10,867 nt of DNA from IMG/VR virus record IMGVR_UViG_2609459797_000001, one strand, 5' to 3'. The notes beneath the pieces were generated by a model, which had not been told where the DNA came from, did no database searches, and worked only from the letters and a program-made list of their open reading frames with translations. Made by a program: the position numbers and the translations under genes. The DNA is from a virus (lineage: Duplodnaviria; Heunggongvirae; Uroviricota; Caudoviricetes; Autographiviridae). Positions 1-10,867 of the stretch are shown here, in pieces. Position 1 is the first letter of the stretch; every line of letters starts with the position of its first letter.

Positions 1-377
1 TGGACGAACAGTGGGGCTATGTCGGGGCTAAATCGCGCCAGCGCTGGCTGTTTTACGCGTATGACAGGCTCCGGAAGACGGTTGTTGCGCACGTATTCGG
101 TGAACGCACTATGGCGACGCTGGGGCGTCTTATGAGCCTGCTGTCACCCTTTGACGTGGTGATATGGATGACGGATGGCTGGCCGCTGTATGAATCCCGC
201 CTGAAGGGAAAGCTGCACGTAATCAGCAAGCGATATACGCAGCGAATTGAGCGGCATAACCTGAATCTGAGGCAGCACCTGGCACGGCTGGGACGGAAGT
301 CGCTGTCGTTCTCAAAATCGGTGGAGCTGCATGACAAAGTCATCGGGCATTATCTGAACATAAAACACTATCAATAA
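1..377 (+). CDS. insB: IS1 transposase InsB, C-terminal part (5' end lies outside the window)
   Basis: Open frame from the window start to TAA at 375-377; the listed ORF 111..377 is only the part after an internal Met. Sequence recognised as IS1 InsB from memory. Confidence 0.85.
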
Positions 378-392
378 GTTGGAGTCATTACC
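1..392 (+). mobile_element. IS1 insertion sequence, 3' portion ending at its terminal inverted repeat; truncated by the window edge
   Basis: Frame 3..377 translates to the InsB C-terminal sequence ([21 protein letters not shown]...[15 protein letters not shown]). GTTGGAGTCATTACC at 378-392 matches the IS1 terminal repeat as I remember it, 15 nt after the insB stop. Confidence 0.9.
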
Positions 393-457: not shown

Positions 458-1534
458 ATGAATTTGACAGCAATGAATCTTGTGAATGCGATAGCCAACC
501 TGCCCAAAAACAGGCAGTTTGATTATGTGAATGAAAGTAATGCTGGGAAGATTGTCGTCGACTCGATTAAGTCACCACAAGGCCCGATACGCTTTAAGCG
601 TTTTAACCCGACCAAAGGTGAGACGCTTAAAGATGCAAAAATAGACAGCATCTCTAGCCAGATGCTTTGGCGTTTGGCTAACGCAATTCAAGAGGATGCA
701 CCTATCAATTTAGATAGAGTGCTTGGTGCAAGCTATAACTCCCGTTCCGTTATTGAGAGTTTACTTGCACACACACCGCAATTTTATTGGTGTAAACTCG
801 ACCGTTTAGAAGTTATTAACACTAAACAGACGGTAAAGAAAGGCCACAAGCATCTTGTGTACTTACCCAATTCGCCACACGAAAACGGTAAGCTCTCTGA
901 ATACAAAGCTAATATTGTAATATCAGAGATGAAAACAGAAGTTGTTTATCAAAGTGTTGATCTGGAAACAATCCGTCCAGTTGAAGGTATGTCGATTGAA
1001 GAATCAAGAAGGCATGCACAAATCCAGATTGCTTTAGTAAAAATAGGCCACCACTTAGGCTATAGAACATGGGTGGCAGCTAATGATCGTGGACTTAAAT
1101 ATAACGGGAAAGTCATTGCTCAAATGGATGGGGTAATTGATAGTCTCTCAAATGAAAAGGTATTAAGCTCGTACAGCGAGGCCATTGACGGTGCAAAACT
1201 AATAGATTGCATTTGGTTTAGAAATGGAAAATTAATGCCCGCCGTGATGGAAATTGAGCACAGCACTGGGATTAAAAGCGGATTAATCCGTATGAAGAAT
1301 TTTTGTGACTATGCCCCACGGCTTCAAGATATCAGATGGACAATCGTAGCCCCCGATGAATATCGAGCTAAAGTCATTGAATTTGCGAATATGCCGCAAT
1401 TCCGAGAGCTGGACACAAAATTCTTCCCGTACTCAGCAGTCGAAGAGTTGTATTCTCTTTGTGAACGACGCAAACCACAAGGAATTACAGACCAATTCCT
1501 TAATGCGTTTATGGAAAACTGCGTAACCCACTGA
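458..1534 (+). CDS. Hypothetical protein (358 aa), compositionally foreign; possible nuclease or defence-type protein (inference only)
   Basis: ATG at 458 preceded by AGGGA about 7 nt upstream; uninterrupted 358-codon frame to TGA at 1532-1534. Hand counts on 60-nt samples give about 37-48% GC against a clearly GC-richer surrounding. Convergent with the minus-strand operon. Weak D...E-x-E pattern (LIDCIWF...AVMEIEHS) that could be a PD-(D/E)XK-like core; not verified. Confidence 0.7.
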   Translation: MNLTAMNLVNAIANLPKNRQFDYVNESNAGKIVVDSIKSPQGPIRFKRFNPTKGETLKDAKIDSISSQMLWRLANAIQEDAPINLDRVLGASYNSRSVIESLLAHTPQFYWCKLDRLEVINTKQTVKKGHKHLVYLPNSPHENGKLSEYKANIVISEMKTEVVYQSVDLETIRPVEGMSIEESRRHAQIQIALVKIGHHLGYRTWVAANDRGLKYNGKVIAQMDGVIDSLSNEKVLSSYSEAIDGAKLIDCIWFRNGKLMPAVMEIEHSTGIKSGLIRMKNFCDYAPRLQDIRWTIVAPDEYRAKVIEFANMPQFRELDTKFFPYSAVEELYSLCERRKPQGITDQFLNAFMENCVTH

Positions 1535-2716: not shown

Positions 2717-3226
2717 TTAGGCAGCCTGCAACAAATCGGCTGGTGTTGAGGGATGGTATCTGGCTTTAGCTTTCAGGTACGCAGCACGTGCCGCCGCTTC
2801 GGATGTGAATAAGCCAAGGTGATGGCGTACACCGTCAACGCGTATGTAAGCCTCCCATTTGCTACAGCCTTTATTCCAGCTATATCCCCTTGCCTTGCGT
2901 CGGTTCTGGTCGTTTTCCCGCTGCGTAACCAAACGCAGATTGCATAGGCGGTTGTCGTCACGGATACCGTTGATGTGATCGATCTGCTTACCGTGAGGAA
3001 TAGCGCCATGCGCAAGAATCCACGCCACGCGATGGGCTTTTAGCTGGTACTGCTTGCCATCAAGTCGCAGGGCAACTTGACGATAGCCATCAGCTCGCCG
3101 GGTGGAGTCAGCATAGGAGCCAGCCTTAACCCGGCGTCGGTTAGCTTTATGGCACAAGCGACCTGTAACCGGGTCATACAGGAAAAGGGATCGCAGCAGC
3201 TCAGGGGCGTAAGCATCATTAACCAT
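2717..3226 (-). CDS. HNH homing-endonuclease-like protein with C-terminal AP2-type DNA-binding domain
   Basis: HNH_3-type motif AHRVAWILAHG...IDHINGIRDDNRLCNLRLVTQREN, followed by an AP2-like segment GYSWNKGCSKWEAYIRVDGVRHHLGLFTSEAAARAAYLKA. ATG at 3226 with GGAGGGG upstream. Confidence 0.85.
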   Translation of the reverse strand: MVNDAYAPELLRSLFLYDPVTGRLCHKANRRRVKAGSYADSTRRADGYRQVALRLDGKQYQLKAHRVAWILAHGAIPHGKQIDHINGIRDDNRLCNLRLVTQRENDQNRRKARGYSWNKGCSKWEAYIRVDGVRHHLGLFTSEAAARAAYLKAKARYHPSTPADLLQAA

Positions 3227-3242: not shown

Positions 3243-4238
3243 TTACGCAGATTGTCGGAAATTGATAACGCAATCAGGACGACGCAGCCCAACGTTGAAC
3301 AGGCGATATGAGTCCATCACCATCGTCATTTCGCGTTCATCATCCCACTGGCGATTAATGACGCTCTGCGCTTCGACCGTCAACAGTACCGAGGAAGGTT
3401 TAAACAGCGTCGCCCTCGTCAGCGCTTCCTCTGCGGTAACGTCATAATCAGCGCCCAGTTCATGCCCGGTAATGGCTTCCTGCGGGTAACTATTCAGCTC
3501 GATAACTCGCACCCCAGCGACATAGCCAACACGACGCCATGCGTAATCGTTGCCACTATCCCGGCTGTAACGGACGTTCATCAGCTTCTTATGTTCCATC
3601 AGGATGCTGAACCAAGCCGGGTCGATAAGCAGTACCAACTCCGCCACCGGAATATCTTTCTCAGTCAGGAATCGATTAACAGCAGCTTTAATAGCGCTAA
3701 CCAGCTCATTCGCGGCGTCTTCTTCGCTCCCCGCTGTCAGGTCGAGCGAGACAACGTTATCCGTCAACGGGTTAAACGTTGGTTGCAGTGTCGGCGGTGG
3801 TACAAAGTCAGTCGCTTTGATTAGCTGGATGGCGTGCGCTTCGTCGTAGAATTTAGCGTGAGCAGTACCGATATTGCGGCTCAGCTCTGCGCGAAAGGTG
3901 GGTGCAGTCCAGTCATCCTGATAGTCAATGGGGATGCGGATATAGCTCAGCGTATCCACAGAGATAACCAACTTGTCCGACTTAACGGCGGTAGGCTCCA
4001 GCGATTGCCCTGCTGTTCTGCCCTTCACCTCCAGATCACCACTCAGGCGATCAATGCGGTATTGGTTGCTGGCTTTCAGCGGCCTGTATGTAGACAGCCT
4101 CTCGGCCAGAAATACGGATTTGGACTCTAAACGGGTCTGGACATCCCGGTCATAAGCCTCGATGTGAATATCATTGTCGGATTCCACCCCGCCATAATGT
4201 GGGCGAAACAGATCGGGACTGTACGAAGTATCAGCCAT
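3243..4238 (-). CDS. Hypothetical 331-aa protein; motif pattern resembles HK97-fold major capsid protein of the T7 gp10 type (unverified)
   Basis: ATG at 4238 with GGAG 8-9 nt upstream. Ungapped, position-matched motif resemblance to T7 gp10 as I remember it: VLIYDIED versus IRIPIDYQDD near residue 100; ALTK...VP...DRVFYCDPDSYSAIL versus RFLTEKDIPVAELVLLIDPAWFSIL near 185-215; NVMGFEVVEVP versus YVAGVRVIELN near 240; KYAMG..GLRPE versus SYRLFNVGLRRPD near the C-terminus. Recall-based, needs profile confirmation. Confidence 0.75.
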   Translation of the reverse strand: MADTSYSPDLFRPHYGGVESDNDIHIEAYDRDVQTRLESKSVFLAERLSTYRPLKASNQYRIDRLSGDLEVKGRTAGQSLEPTAVKSDKLVISVDTLSYIRIPIDYQDDWTAPTFRAELSRNIGTAHAKFYDEAHAIQLIKATDFVPPPTLQPTFNPLTDNVVSLDLTAGSEEDAANELVSAIKAAVNRFLTEKDIPVAELVLLIDPAWFSILMEHKKLMNVRYSRDSGNDYAWRRVGYVAGVRVIELNSYPQEAITGHELGADYDVTAEEALTRATLFKPSSVLLTVEAQSVINRQWDDEREMTMVMDSYRLFNVGLRRPDCVINFRQSA

Positions 4239-7604: not shown

Positions 7605-9449
7605 TCAGAGGAAGCGGGAGATGTAACCCCAGTTAGCATTGTGGGGCTGGTACAACGCCGCCAAATCATCAGGCGCATCCCCCAGCGCCAACGATGACCA
7701 GAGTATGAAAGCACGGGCAGGTTGACCATCGCGCCCGGCACGGCCAACCATTTGCACCAAATCGGGCAGGTCTTCCGGAACATAAGTGACAATTACGTTA
7801 CGCACGTCAGAAATATCGGCTCCGAGGCCAAAGGCTTTGGTCGCCACCAGAACAGCGCCGGGCGTGCTGGAGAACCACTCTGCGTTGGCGTGCCGCTGAT
7901 CGCGGCTCAGTCGCTCAACGTCAGAATGATAAGGCCGGGCACGGTCTCCCAGTTCGTTGAGATACGCATACAGCATCTTTATGCTGTCCACCATCACCAA
8001 TGTCTTTTCATTCTCCGGCAGCGCATTGACCAGACCAACGGCAGCCCGGCGCGGAGTTACGCATTGCTGAGCAGGAATAAGCTGGATGTTTTCACGGGCA
8101 GCACTGGCGCGGTAGGTGAGGAACTCGCCACGACAGCCAAGCTCTTTCATCAAGCCAGACTCATCACCTTTTCGCAGGGTCGCAGTAAACGCGCACCGCT
8201 GAGCATCCGGGAAGGCATTTTGCAGGGTGTGCTTCATTGCAGGGAAAGCGTCCCGGAACTCCCATTCATCAACGGTGTGCACCTCGTCAATGATAAATCT
8301 GTCCGCACCAGCGGCCATCAGCGCGGCAAGCACCTGACTACCCGGCACCAGATGTTCAGGCGAAACGACTGCGACGCGGAAAGCACCAGCAGCCAACCCC
8401 GCAAGTTGCTGCGCATTACGCCGCTTCGGTAGTTTATCGCCAAATGCCACAGCGTGAACGCCAGCCTCCCTTAACTGCTGTAGCACCTGCTGCTTGATAG
8501 TGTTCGTCGGCACGACAATAACGGTCATACCTTCGCCAGCATCAGACTCAAATTGCAGGGCATAGGTGAATGCAGCCGTCTTTCCGTACCCGGTCGGCAG
8601 TACGGCCAACATATCGCGGTCACGGGCAAACACAGCGGCGGCCACGTCGAGTTGACCGGGTCGCCAGTCATGACCATCTGGCGGCGGTAACGGTACGAAT
8701 GCCGGGCGGTCGCATTGCTCCAGCTCACGGAACCTGTACGGCGCTGTAACCAGCGGCGGGATGGACGGCGGCAGGTCAGCGCCGCCAACGTCACAGTGTT
8801 GGTTCTTCGTGTTGAAATTGTCCTTAGTGGATTTCAGCTCACTGCCCCATAGCTGGTGAAACTCCGGGCTATCCCCGAGGGTGTCAAAGTCAGCGTGGCG
8901 CATCGCCTCCAGCTTGCTCATGCCACGATTGATGCGGCGGATGGTCTTCTCATCACAAATCAGAAACTCGCGACAGGCTTTAAGAAAGGCGTTTTGCCCC
9001 GTGGTCGCTTCCGGGATGGCGTGCTCACGCGGTTTCAATGCGGCATCGTCTACGCGAACACCGGGGAAATCTGGTGGCAGCGGCTCGGCGTACCGGGCAG
9101 GCTTTTTGTTTAGCCACATCACCAGCTCAGCGCGGCGGCAGTGGATTGCATCGCCCGGCTGGATAATCTGGCGCAACCCTGCATCAGCGCGGCGGGCGTG
9201 TGTCTTGCGTCCGATTCCGTTAGCCTCTTTCCATTCTCGGAACGACATAACAGAATCGTCAGCGTTAAAGTAAAACTCTTGTGACTCCGTATTAAACGCA
9301 GCCTGTATGGGTTTACGCTTTACAGGACATTGCTTGTTACGCGATACAACTATCTTATCCGCAACCAGTTGCTGAGCATCCGCAGGCGCAGTGTTCAGCG
9401 GTTCGGCGTCAGCGGCCAGCGCAAGCAGGCGGTTCAATCTCGTGGGCAT
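7605..9449 (-). CDS. SF2 DExH/RecQ-like helicase (614 aa) with a roughly 270-aa non-helicase N-terminal extension
   Basis: Helicase motifs in order: LPTGYGKT (motif I), VVPTNT (Ia), DEVH (II), FTAT (III), VGRAGRDGQ (VI). ATG at 9449 with GGAG 9 nt upstream. Confidence 0.9.
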   Translation of the reverse strand: MPTRLNRLLALAADAEPLNTAPADAQQLVADKIVVSRNKQCPVKRKPIQAAFNTESQEFYFNADDSVMSFREWKEANGIGRKTHARRADAGLRQIIQPGDAIHCRRAELVMWLNKKPARYAEPLPPDFPGVRVDDAALKPREHAIPEATTGQNAFLKACREFLICDEKTIRRINRGMSKLEAMRHADFDTLGDSPEFHQLWGSELKSTKDNFNTKNQHCDVGGADLPPSIPPLVTAPYRFRELEQCDRPAFVPLPPPDGHDWRPGQLDVAAAVFARDRDMLAVLPTGYGKTAAFTYALQFESDAGEGMTVIVVPTNTIKQQVLQQLREAGVHAVAFGDKLPKRRNAQQLAGLAAGAFRVAVVSPEHLVPGSQVLAALMAAGADRFIIDEVHTVDEWEFRDAFPAMKHTLQNAFPDAQRCAFTATLRKGDESGLMKELGCRGEFLTYRASAARENIQLIPAQQCVTPRRAAVGLVNALPENEKTLVMVDSIKMLYAYLNELGDRARPYHSDVERLSRDQRHANAEWFSSTPGAVLVATKAFGLGADISDVRNVIVTYVPEDLPDLVQMVGRAGRDGQPARAFILWSSLALGDAPDDLAALYQPHNANWGYISRFL

Positions 9450-9472: not shown

Positions 9473-9775
9473 TCAAGCAGCTTTCCGCCAGATGTATCGG
9501 CGGTGGACACCTCTCTTTTTGGTCACGCCGTGCAGCTTTCGCCATGCGCGGAAGGTCATAACGGAACCATCGGGATTGTAGTAATACACACGCAGACGTT
9601 TGTGGAATGCTCCCTGTACCGTCTTGTCCGTGACAGCGCAGCGCACGTAATGCGGGATAACAGTTTCACTCCAGACCAGTTGTTGCGGCGTGGCGCTAAT
9701 CGTGCTTAACGCTTCGGCGGCAGCGGTTGCCAGCTCCAGTTGCAGGCGTGAATTCATGTGGCGTAAATCAACCAT
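9473..9775 (-). CDS. Small protein (100 aa) paralogous to the N-terminal ~90 residues of the downstream helicase
   Basis: ATG at 9775 with GGAG about 8 nt upstream. Ungapped alignment to helicase residues ~3-92: QQLV, C-x-V, K, Q-AF, Y-N-D-SVM-FR-W, G, K, RR all in register. Confidence 0.7.
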   Translation of the reverse strand: MVDLRHMNSRLQLELATAAAEALSTISATPQQLVWSETVIPHYVRCAVTDKTVQGAFHKRLRVYYYNPDGSVMTFRAWRKLHGVTKKRGVHRRYIWRKAA

Positions 9776-9818: not shown

Positions 9819-9875
9819 GGACGGAAGCGCCGGAAGTGTGGCGGTGGCGGTTGAGGCGGCGTCGGTGTTCCGTCC
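9819..9875. other. GC-rich interrupted hairpin (stem GGACGGAA/TTCCGTCC around a 41-nt GGCGG-repeat loop) in the operon leader
   Basis: Perfect 8-bp inverted repeat at 9819-9826 and 9868-9875, with an inner CGCCG/CGGCG pair and three GGCGG repeats in the loop; lies 45-100 nt upstream of the first start codon of the minus-strand operon. Confidence 0.3.
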
Positions 9876-10123
9876 CTCTTTAGTAGTGATCTTCATCCAG
9901 TGATTTGGATTTAACTCAGGCGCAACAGGCAATGCAGCGGGATAGCGCGAGGGCGGGCTTGTGGTCTCATCTTCCCACAGTAGTAACCCTTATCGGTCGG
10001 TAGCCTTCCCAATATAGTAGCTTTCAAGTCAAGAATTCTATCCGGGGCTTGCCTTCCCTTTGTAGTCACTTTCATCCACGCATACCCCGGACAGCCCTTG
10101 TGGCGTCTGGTGCGACAGGCAAT
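9876..10123. repeat. Iteron-like imperfect direct repeats in the noncoding region upstream of the helicase operon
   Basis: CTCTTTAGTAGTGATCTTCATCCA (9876-9899) versus CCCTTTGTAGTCACTTTCATCCA (10056-10078); GGCGCAACAGGCAAT (9919-9933) versus GGTGCGACAGGCAAT (10109-10123); CTTGTGG twice; CAATATAG twice; TAGTAG-type hexamers four times. Confidence 0.4.
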
Positions 10124-10252
10124 TTCAGGTAGGTGTATTAGGGATGTGAAATTGGTTCTTGGCGTAGCTCTTTCCTACAATATAGACACTTTTAAATTTA
10201 TTAATAAATGCAGTCAGTTAAACGGTTATCTTTATTACCTATAACTTTCACA

Positions 10253-10274
10253 GATCAATAGATTAAAATTGATC
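10253..10274. promoter_or_regulatory. Palindromic operator-like site GATCAAT-N8-ATTGATC containing two GATC (Dam) sites
   Basis: Perfect 7-bp inverted repeat with an 8-bp AT-rich spacer, located just upstream of the promoter-like hexamers. Confidence 0.35.
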
Positions 10275-10287
10275 GGAATTATCAGCT

Positions 10288-10325
10288 TTAAATTTCTTGA
10301 CAGCTATTTGTATAATGGTTTTAAG
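10288..10325 (+). promoter_or_regulatory. Rightward sigma70-like promoter candidate (overlapping alternatives)
   Basis: Perfect TATAAT at 10311-10316 with TTAAAT 17 bp upstream (10288-10293); alternatively perfect TTGACA at 10297-10302 with TTTAAG 17 bp downstream (10320-10325). AT-rich upstream region. Confidence 0.35.
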
Positions 10326-10329
10326 AAGT

Positions 10330-10470
10330 TGTATCGGAGTGAGCGACTGGCAGTGAGCGTAGCGAACGGTAAGCCAGTCGGCGAAGAACGAAGAGTATGA
10401 GATGACTTGTCATCGAATACGATGAGTGATTGAGCGCTACGAACGAAGATACGCTGTATAACAGTTAGAA
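10330..10470 (+). other. Hairpin-rich untranslated segment downstream of the promoter candidate; possible small RNA or leader, interrupted by IS1
   Basis: No ORF longer than a few codons. 8-bp stem CGACTGGC/GCCAGTCG (10344-10351 and 10373-10380); two mutually exclusive hairpins sharing TCATC (GATGA-CTTG-TCATC at 10401-10414 and CATCG-AATA-CGATG at 10411-10424); GAACGAAGA repeated at 10386-10394 and 10441-10449. Confidence 0.2.
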
Positions 10471-10527
10471 CAGTTAACTAGCTGAATATGAATAATACAT
10501 TTAATATTTATCTGGATTAGTATTTTC

Positions 10528-10867
10528 GGTGATGCTGCCAACTTACTGATTTAGTGTATGATGGTGTTTTTGAGGTGCTCCAGTGGCTTCTGTTTCTATC
10601 AGCTGTCCCTCCTGTTCAGCTACTGACGGGGTGGTGCGTAACGGCAAAAGCACCGCCGGACATCAGCGCTATCTCTGCTCTCACTGCCGTAAAACATGGC
10701 AACTGCAGTTCACTTACACCGCTTCTCAACCCGGTACGCACCAGAAAATCATTGATATGGCCATGAATGGCGTTGGATGCCGGGCAACAGCCCGCATTAT
10801 GGGCGTTGGCCTCAACACGATTTTACGTCACTTAAAAAACTCAGGCCGCAGTCGGTAACCTCGCGCA
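10528..10867 (+). mobile_element. IS1 insertion sequence, 5' portion (left terminal repeat and insA); continues beyond the window
   Basis: GGTGATGCTGCCAACTTACTGAT at 10528 onward matches the IS1 end repeat as I remember it; insA starts 55 nt inside, as in IS1. Same orientation as the IS1 fragment at 1-392. Confidence 0.9.
10583..10858 (+). CDS. insA: IS1 InsA (91 aa)
   Basis: Translation [43 protein letters not shown]...LKNSGRSR recognised as IS1 InsA from memory; complete ORF with stop at 10856-10858. Confidence 0.9.

Follow-up and report, generated by a model that had tools for sequence, protein, structure and literature searches.

A conserved hairpin module in the control region of a tRNA-integrated, satellite-like island is a candidate regulatory RNA

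The CI immunity RNA of satellite P4, studied by Forti, Ghisotti, Dehò and colleagues, is untranslated, is made from a constitutive host promoter and replaces a protein repressor. CI lies on the same strand as the replication operon, within its leader, and pairs with the complementary sequences seqA and seqC in that transcript; it is processed by RNase P and PNPase and confers immunity. To our knowledge, RNA-based control is known in very few satellites, of which P4 is the classic case. In plasmid ColE1, RNA II and RNA I control replication, with the promoter of the antisense RNA I located inside the 5' domain, while plasmid ssi sites provide a model for hairpin priming or helicase loading in single-stranded DNA.

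Here we describe a non-coding segment located within a 10,867-nt stretch of DNA (the window) that can be compared with each of these systems. Like P4 CI, the RNA predicted from the segment would be an untranslated satellite RNA, transcribed from a host promoter in a control region and standing in place of a repressor, and both RNAs contain stem-loops with short repeated sequence motifs. In contrast to CI, which is transcribed on the same strand within its operon leader, the promoter in the window points away from the helicase operon, no complementary partner of the seqA/seqC type was found within the window, and there is no sequence or Rfam similarity to P4 CI. With ColE1 the segment shares a host promoter beside a region resembling an origin, three to four stem-loops in a 5' domain, the lack of an ORF and a purine-rich sequence downstream that could favour an RNA-DNA hybrid; it differs from ColE1 in that no antisense promoter was found and that a U-rich, G-poor tail lies between the hairpins and the purine-rich region. 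Retron msr-msd sequences likewise are structured and ORF-free, and follow a promoter in a mobile, defence-carrying island, but the window segment lacks a reverse transcriptase next to it, a1/a2 repeats on its flanks and any Rfam match. From the sequence, we estimate with a probability of roughly 0.45 that positions 10180-10470 constitute a non-coding module that is complete in itself, within the control region of a capsid-encoding, satellite-like island integrated at a tRNA gene, and that this module specifies a regulatory RNA.

The window contains a 10.1-kb piece of a genomic island lying between two IS1 copies in the same orientation (Table 1). In complete relatives, a tyrosine integrase is found at the far end of the island, while at the near end, beyond the equivalent of 10330-10527, a small serine recombinase is accompanied by defence cargo that varies and by a tRNA gene (Leu-CAA, Gly-CCC or Thr). 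The defence cargo of the family includes TIR, restriction-modification and DUF3800 genes. Judged by its gene content, this layout is the anatomy of a phage satellite, and no description of the island family was found in the literature searched. The capsid protein shares 55% sequence identity with its counterparts, the major capsid proteins, in Autographiviridae (Bonnellvirus Lidtsur and relatives), and the island is without portal, scaffold or terminase genes, which together hint at a satellite of T7-like podophages. Two further observations concern the cargo and the operon. The helicase is an end-to-end match to one PADLOC 'DpdF' model (1053 bits) in an island from which the other Dpd genes are absent, and this model may have been built from satellite helicases resembling that of the window. 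The restriction enzyme gene (within 393-1534) directly adjoins the left IS1; in E. coli N9 it is preceded by a cytosine methyltransferase gene that overlaps the IS1 cut point of the window, so that the cognate methylase may be disrupted or displaced here.

Table 1. Features of the window, with identity to the window among sampled relatives where available
Feature	Position	Strand	Details	Identity
IS1 transposase gene, 3' part, and IS1 right end	1-392			
Type II restriction enzyme gene	458-1534	+	PADLOC 1e-122	
HNH endonuclease	2717-3226	-		
Major head protein	3243-4238	-		
Several small proteins and HTH proteins	between the two IS1 copies			
614-aa helicase	7605-9449	-	RecQ-like core; full-length PADLOC 'DpdF' match	83-87%
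100-aa first gene of helicase operon	9473-9775	-		~50%
Repeat region	9870-10195			40-74%
AT-rich promoter block	10180-10323	+	E. coli, Enterobacter, Trabulsiella and metagenome loci	91-94%
Predicted sigma-70-type promoter, TTTAAA (10287)-18-TATAAT (10316)	10287-10316	+	promoter scans of the window and IS1-free locus L017	
Hairpin domain	10324-10470			91-99%
Closing stem, GUAUC 10331-10335 / GAUAC 10448-10452	10331-10452	+	RNAalifold prediction; encloses hairpin domain	
Hairpin 1, 8-bp stem and 21-nt loop	10344-10380	+	-15.6 kcal/mol, z -3.6	
Helix 2, 10385-10389 with 10426-10431	10385-10431	+	encloses hairpin 3	
Hairpin 3, 10395-10406 / 10409-10420	within 10395-10425	+	tandem G·A internal loop; -7.1 kcal/mol, z -2.5	
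Competing hairpin, TCATCG 10410-10415 / CGATGA 10420-10425	within 10395-10425	+	-6.2 kcal/mol, z -3.6	
Weak hairpin 4, AGCG-N-UA / UACGCU	10433-10455	+	10-nt loop; z = 0	
Start of G-poor, AU-rich tail	10464-10527	+	cut by IS1 after 10527	67-84%
Last 57 nt of 10330-10527				67-84%
IS1 left end, IRL then insA	10528-10867	+	Pfam InsA domains	

The segment was found in only 4 of 5,426 complete E. coli genomes. Further copies were obtained from one genome per species (Trabulsiella, Enterobacter), from contigs encoding the 100-aa protein of the window and from gut metagenomes, giving a total of approximately 20 IS1-free alleles (loci are designated by L numbers), some of which are 99.2-99.6% identical to the window. 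The identities in Table 1 were calculated to the window, part by part, for loci from E. coli, Enterobacter, Trabulsiella and metagenomes, and they indicate that the functional unit is 10180-10470 rather than 10330-10527. Across three genera, this module is more conserved than the helicase gene in every comparison. It recombines as a unit, being unlinked to capsid type, first operon gene, recombinase type or tRNA site. Most members of the family carry a different ('major') 5' module, which begins GTATCGCTAGATACGCAGAGCGAGCG, and one locus (L041) has neither the window-type nor the 'major' module, so that the island can evidently do without the module. The two 5-mers that form the closing stem recur in the 'major' type, where they make a simple hairpin, GTATC-GCTA-GATAC, at the equivalent place, and thus the hairpin domain of the window type looks like an insertion into the GTATC/GATAC loop.

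The pronounced mosaicism of the family, the sharp boundaries of its modules and the dispensability of this one in some relatives would also be expected if the segment had no function of its own and were recently exchanged intergenic DNA, its identity due to horizontal transfer and its hairpins to chance. Overall folding of the region, which is no better than that of shuffled sequences, agrees with such an origin: a 147-nt stretch gave z = -1.6 and the 308-nt IS1-free version z = -0.1. However, horizontal exchange would have to account for a module that surpasses the adjacent protein-coding gene in conservation, and for substitutions that respect its individual helices, as set out below. We therefore regard an absence of function as quite unlikely.

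All features that a first-pass annotation of 10330-10527 had described were found in the sequence where it had placed them. The 8-bp stem of hairpin 1 is formed by CGACTGGC (10344-10351) and GCCAGTCG (10373-10380), with 21 nt between the arms, and none of 200 shuffled sequences folded as well. Downstream of it, GATGAC (10401-10406) and GTCATC (10409-10414) form the core of the 12-position hairpin 3, which shares a strand with the competing hairpin. The two are real, mutually exclusive alternatives, and since their predicted energies are nearly equal (Table 1) they are nearly balanced. A switch between them is thermodynamically possible; comparative support for it is lacking because both hairpins are invariant. 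The 9-nt motif GAACGAAGA does occur twice, 55 nt apart, at 10386-10394 and 10441-10449, but the repeat is not conserved, as the first copy reads GAATGATGA in one haplotype group. A longer repeat, TGAGCGTAGCGAACG and TGAGCGCTACGAACG (10354-10368 and 10431-10445), is invariant except at one position.

An alignment of the 146-nt domain comprised 9 distinct haplotypes with 97% mean identity, a low diversity that corresponds to about three independent events. The covariance analysis across homologous loci that the earlier annotation had proposed revealed compensatory changes that keep the helices paired, with four pairs changing on both sides. In hairpin 1, C-G is replaced by U-A in the L002 group and G-C by A-U in L034, two independent events, with no uncompensated change and a single variable loop position that is G, A or U. 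Two haplotype groups are separated by six substitutions, all of which fall in the complementary segments 10385-10389 and 10426-10431; in helix 2, these convert G·U to U-A and C-G to U-A with pairing retained, while an alternative register pairs in only 72% of cells. Hairpin 3 and the competing hairpin are invariant except for a C-to-U change in L019 at a terminal G-C pair, which gives a G·U pair in either fold, and the three variable positions of hairpin 4 are all in its bulge or loop. Variability elsewhere is confined to the hairpin 1 loop, the bulge or loop of hairpin 4, the linkers and the 3' end. The covariation score of the alignment was 0.083, compared with 0.045 ± 0.008 in shuffled alignments (0 of 500 as high) and 0-0.054 in slid controls. 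Hairpin 1 is thus supported by comparative evidence, and its two independent double substitutions, with none that breaks it and with other changes avoiding stems, argue against hairpins that arose by chance.

The substitutions also bear on the strand. The closing stem of L013 is GUGUC/GAUAU, with two G·U pairs, and G64·U108 is found in six haplotypes. As these, the G·U pair of L019 and the G·U pairs of helix 2 would be C·A mismatches on the other strand, they fit the plus strand only. Together with the tandem G·A of hairpin 3, the G·U pairs favour a plus-strand RNA over a minus-strand RNA, and somewhat over DNA hairpins.

Upstream of the hairpins, the AT-rich block contains three CTTTAAATTTC-like motifs (at approximately 10189, 10239 and 10283) and two GATC sites within an inverted repeat. 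The first-pass annotation had proposed a promoter here. A plausible sigma-70 promoter, TTTAAA-18-TATAAT, is indeed present on the plus strand in consensus scans, with a predicted transcription start at approximately 10323, but the pairing of TTGACA (10299) with TATAAT (10311) fails because just 8 nt separate the two hexamers, which hence are not a -35/-10 pair. The -35 hexamer TTTAAA is weak (4/6 match) and its spacer is 18 nt long; the perfect TTGACA lies inside this spacer, and GGTTTT follows the -10 hexamer. Consensus scans of the window and of L017 identified no minus-strand promoter of the antisense RNA I type. The same promoter layout occurs in Kagunavirus phages (e.g. fBC-Eco01), with 31 of 36 nt shared, including TTGAAA/TTTAAA, TTGACA in the spacer, TATAAT and GGTTTT. 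In both cases the promoter lies between divergent operons, beside a helicase operon, and the transcript predicted to follow it is folded and free of ORFs. The Kagunavirus promoter is annotated in one record as a predicted host promoter, and the phage feature is itself a prediction only. The likeness is confined to the promoters, as the transcribed parts could not be aligned, and the Kagunavirus RNA ends in a clear intrinsic terminator whereas the window RNA has none. In fBC-Eco01 (L053, 1201-1462), the predicted host promoter leads into an ORF-free RNA of about 220 nt that folds very strongly (z -4.5), has an intrinsic terminator and lies between divergent early operons; it may represent a phage small RNA that has escaped annotation.

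Five repeats of approximately 25 bp, all in the same orientation, separate the first leftward gene from the AT-rich block (9870-10195). Each consists of CCTTCCC, 2-7 nt, TAGTAG and then cTTTCA; their spacing is irregular, they are 40-74% conserved between loci, and they could be operators or iterons. The idea that they are promoters for the single-subunit RNA polymerase of a helper was rejected, since their internal spacing varies and phage Lidtsur has no matching family.

A point that we count against an RNA is that the 140 bp of AT-rich DNA upstream are as conserved as the hairpins, which would fit a site acting at the DNA level as well. The segment might accordingly be a replication-origin element, in which the repeats would be iterons, the AT-rich block an unwinding element and the hairpins, in single-stranded DNA, a priming or helicase-loading site. 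The order of repeats, AT-rich block with its two GATC sites and hairpins is consistent with such an origin, as are a resolvase-like recombinase and short palindromes nearby, reminiscent of plasmid maintenance regions, and the absence of a recognisable primase from the island; moreover, compensatory changes would preserve DNA hairpins equally. Against this, the repeats are irregularly spaced and poorly conserved, the RecQ/DpdF-like helicase core is unlike known replicative initiator helicases, and the repeats are kept where the hairpin module is missing (L041) or replaced ('major' type). The G·U positions and the tandem G·A favour RNA over a DNA element, as does a perfect -10 hexamer that ends 7 nt ahead of the first conserved base of the predicted transcript. 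On balance, an origin appears unlikely, although it is the main alternative to a regulatory RNA.

From the predicted promoter, the conserved helices and the strand-specific G·U pairs we infer that the module is transcribed, and the question of what lies downstream can be addressed in the alleles that IS1 has not interrupted. IS1 begins at 10528, as the earlier annotation had recognised, approximately 205 nt past the predicted start and 71 nt past the last helix; the copy at 10528-10867 is 98.5% identical to the IS1 in L021. The comparison with IS1-free alleles suggested by that annotation brought to light the sequence beyond the cut in approximately 20 loci. From ...GGATTAGTATTTTC these alleles continue with about 90 more G-poor, AU-rich bases, followed in order by a purine-rich, T-poor stretch, GC-rich hairpins, a C-tract motif, a highly conserved 260-nt block, and a terminator with the 3' end of a convergent serine recombinase of 191-210 aa, which, 0.7-1.1 kb away, is the next gene. 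No plus-strand ORF of at least 40 aa begins downstream, in line with the reported absence of an ORF. IS1 took only the tail, and the promoter and structured domain are therefore intact here; any transcript made in this genome would now run into IS1.

These alleles also settle two of the roles that had been put forward for the segment. A leader whose gene was lost to IS1, or the beginning of a retron msr-msd split from its reverse transcriptase by the insertion, would explain why the truncated window lacks an ORF, which is the one point in their favour. Neither a plus-strand gene nor a reverse transcriptase lies before the convergent recombinase in any of the approximately 20 IS1-free alleles, some of which are 99.6% identical to the window, and no Rfam retron model matches. 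Both proposals are refuted by this comparison, and we regard them as extremely unlikely; nor do the IS1-free alleles show the segment to be the 5' end of an ordinary protein-coding gene, the outcome that the first-pass annotation had named as fatal to a non-coding RNA.

Every family member has an ORF-free spacer of 1.1-1.5 kb that extends from the helicase operon to the recombinase. On the plus strand, T accounts for only 5-15% of the bases across 300-500 nt of this spacer (e.g. L005 3390-3870 and L001 6460-6640), which also holds many AGCG motifs, a composition that is kept far better than the sequence itself. Within the 3' domain of the spacer, a search for structured RNA yielded only small covarying helices, with neither strand preferred. 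One variant of the T-rich tail (L004, L008, L016, L047 and L049) is approximately 140 nt longer and carries a 54-aa minus-strand ORF (MEYSENKCRANDS..., L004 6314-6478) annotated by two gene callers; its product is non-hydrophobic and has no family match, and a 15-codon remnant is present in the window-type allele. A second, independent IS1 insertion was identified in L021 (CP017181.1, 4811-5563), in an island that is 99.6% identical, between the repeats and the promoter block, and the AT-rich spacer thus appears to be an IS1 hot spot.

In 58 E. coli genomes, the 260-nt block (located outside the window; L001 6800-7060 and equivalents) shows 88-100% conservation, although the recombinase gene beside it comes in several types. 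It contains short palindromes with 2-bp centres, AGTGAT-GA-ATCACT and CGATG-TT-CATCG, and at its left edge a conserved C-tract, which is a G-quadruplex-type motif on the minus strand; the block is a candidate recombinase site. Direct repeats with CCCACAGC flank the recombinase gene (L001 7009-7030 and 7881-7902; L005 4206-4222 and 5130-5146), and the 191-aa and 207-210-aa types of recombinase have been swapped within conserved flanks in a cassette-like manner.

How the RNA would end was considered from the composition of the tail. No intrinsic terminator was detected in the window region or anywhere in the L017 spacer. In IS1-free alleles the full tail is 152-157 nt long, unstructured and 8-9% G, with a C/G ratio of approximately 2. 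Since this composition is as expected of a Rho entry site, we infer a 3' end defined by Rho-dependent termination or by decay. Alternatively, the absence of an intrinsic terminator between promoter and recombinase could mean that 10330-10527 is just the leader of a long read-through transcript. Such a transcript might form an R-loop in the purine-rich, T-poor region further right and in this way prime or activate replication; it might serve establishment or DNA entry, like the early leaders that host promoters drive in T7-like phages; or it might silence the convergent recombinase. The persistence of the purine-rich composition past the tail in all family members would suit read-through, as would the Autographiviridae-like capsid, given that these phages start infection from strong host promoters with long untranslated leaders. 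On the other hand, the tail with its Rho-entry-like composition comes right after the hairpins, and the spacer is not generally Rho-proof, as the C/G ratio is above 1 in roughly half of the sliding windows across it; Rho resistance across the whole spacer was accordingly not supported. Similarity to the early leader of Lidtsur was not significant, and no exact boxA antitermination signal is present in the spacer, the best candidates being 3-mismatch matches. Moreover, insertions of 150-300 bp between the two parts are tolerated by the spacer, and so is IS1, both here and in L021. A read-through transcript is therefore unlikely.

Searches for a known family, for coding capacity and for targets were negative. 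With a threshold of E <= 1, Rfam gave no match in the region for the window and two IS1-free loci, retron models included. No coding signal was detected on either strand, and the variable columns show no 3-nt periodicity; a 43-codon TTG ORF stops early in the second haplotype group, and the minus-strand open frames gain stops. No antisense target was found in the window, where duplex energies fell within the shuffled range, and a motif search of the window returned just the two plus-strand copies with no complementary copy. A complementary site was likewise absent from phage Lidtsur. Exact-pattern scans of viral contigs identified no homologues, and phage and plasmid collections contained nothing beyond a short promoter match.

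Several other roles were considered and set aside. The intrinsic terminator hairpin and U tail of an Hfq-type trans-acting sRNA are found neither in the window region nor in the L017 spacer. For the antisense RNA of a type I toxin-antitoxin system, the window type offers only the 15-codon remnant, the 54-aa ORF lying mostly beyond 10330-10527. An origin of the T-rich tail by inversion of the A-rich segment found in the 'major' type, through an invertase-like recombinase, is contradicted by alignment scores within the shuffle range and by the same orientation in all 40 loci with enough upstream sequence. RNA-guided integration by the serine recombinase is unnecessary, because a tyrosine integrase is present at the distal end and recombinase type does not track the tRNA site. 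Finally, a CsrA-type sponge was discounted, since GGA motifs, counted by eye, were not above composition-based expectation.

The suggestion that the segment is a small regulatory RNA, or an immunity RNA of a satellite-like element, is compatible with the predicted promoter, the strong conservation, the paired substitutions in the helices and the occurrence of G·U pairs that fit the plus strand only. A regulatory RNA is favoured because the module occupies the usual site of a repressor, divergent from the replication/packaging operon with operator-like repeats between them, and is ORF-free. We propose that the host sigma-70 promoter TTTAAA-18-TATAAT would fire rightward, away from the helicase operon, to produce an untranslated RNA. 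Its first ~130 nt would fold into a closed domain comprising the closing stem, hairpin 1 and helix 2 with hairpin 3, and holding two copies of the 15-nt motif UGAGCG..CGAACG. The RNA would then enter the G-poor, unstructured tail and most likely end there, by Rho-dependent termination or decay. It would act as the regulatory RNA of the island, at the position where temperate phages and satellites keep a repressor gene, and most likely would bind a protein or RNA that is not encoded in the window.

A bolder extension, which we consider quite improbable, is that the island represents an undescribed family of satellites of T7-like (Autographiviridae) phages that use a promoter-proximal RNA as master switch instead of a repressor protein. 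If this were true, the interchangeable 5' modules (window type, 'major' or none) would be alternative RNA specificity cassettes, either sensing or titrating a factor of the helper phage or the host, or driving the host-polymerase-dependent establishment of incoming DNA. For annotation, the result means that the 'empty' spacer of 1.1-1.5 kb consists of DNA that is organised and conserved rather than junk. Should the RNA prove real, it would be an unannotated regulatory RNA, absent from Rfam, at the control point of a widespread and uncharacterised island family; in a public assembly collection, 890 blocks are indexed for the neighbouring 100-aa protein alone. A second, unrelated RNA-controlled satellite would help to explain how such islands are kept silent and how they sense helper phages.
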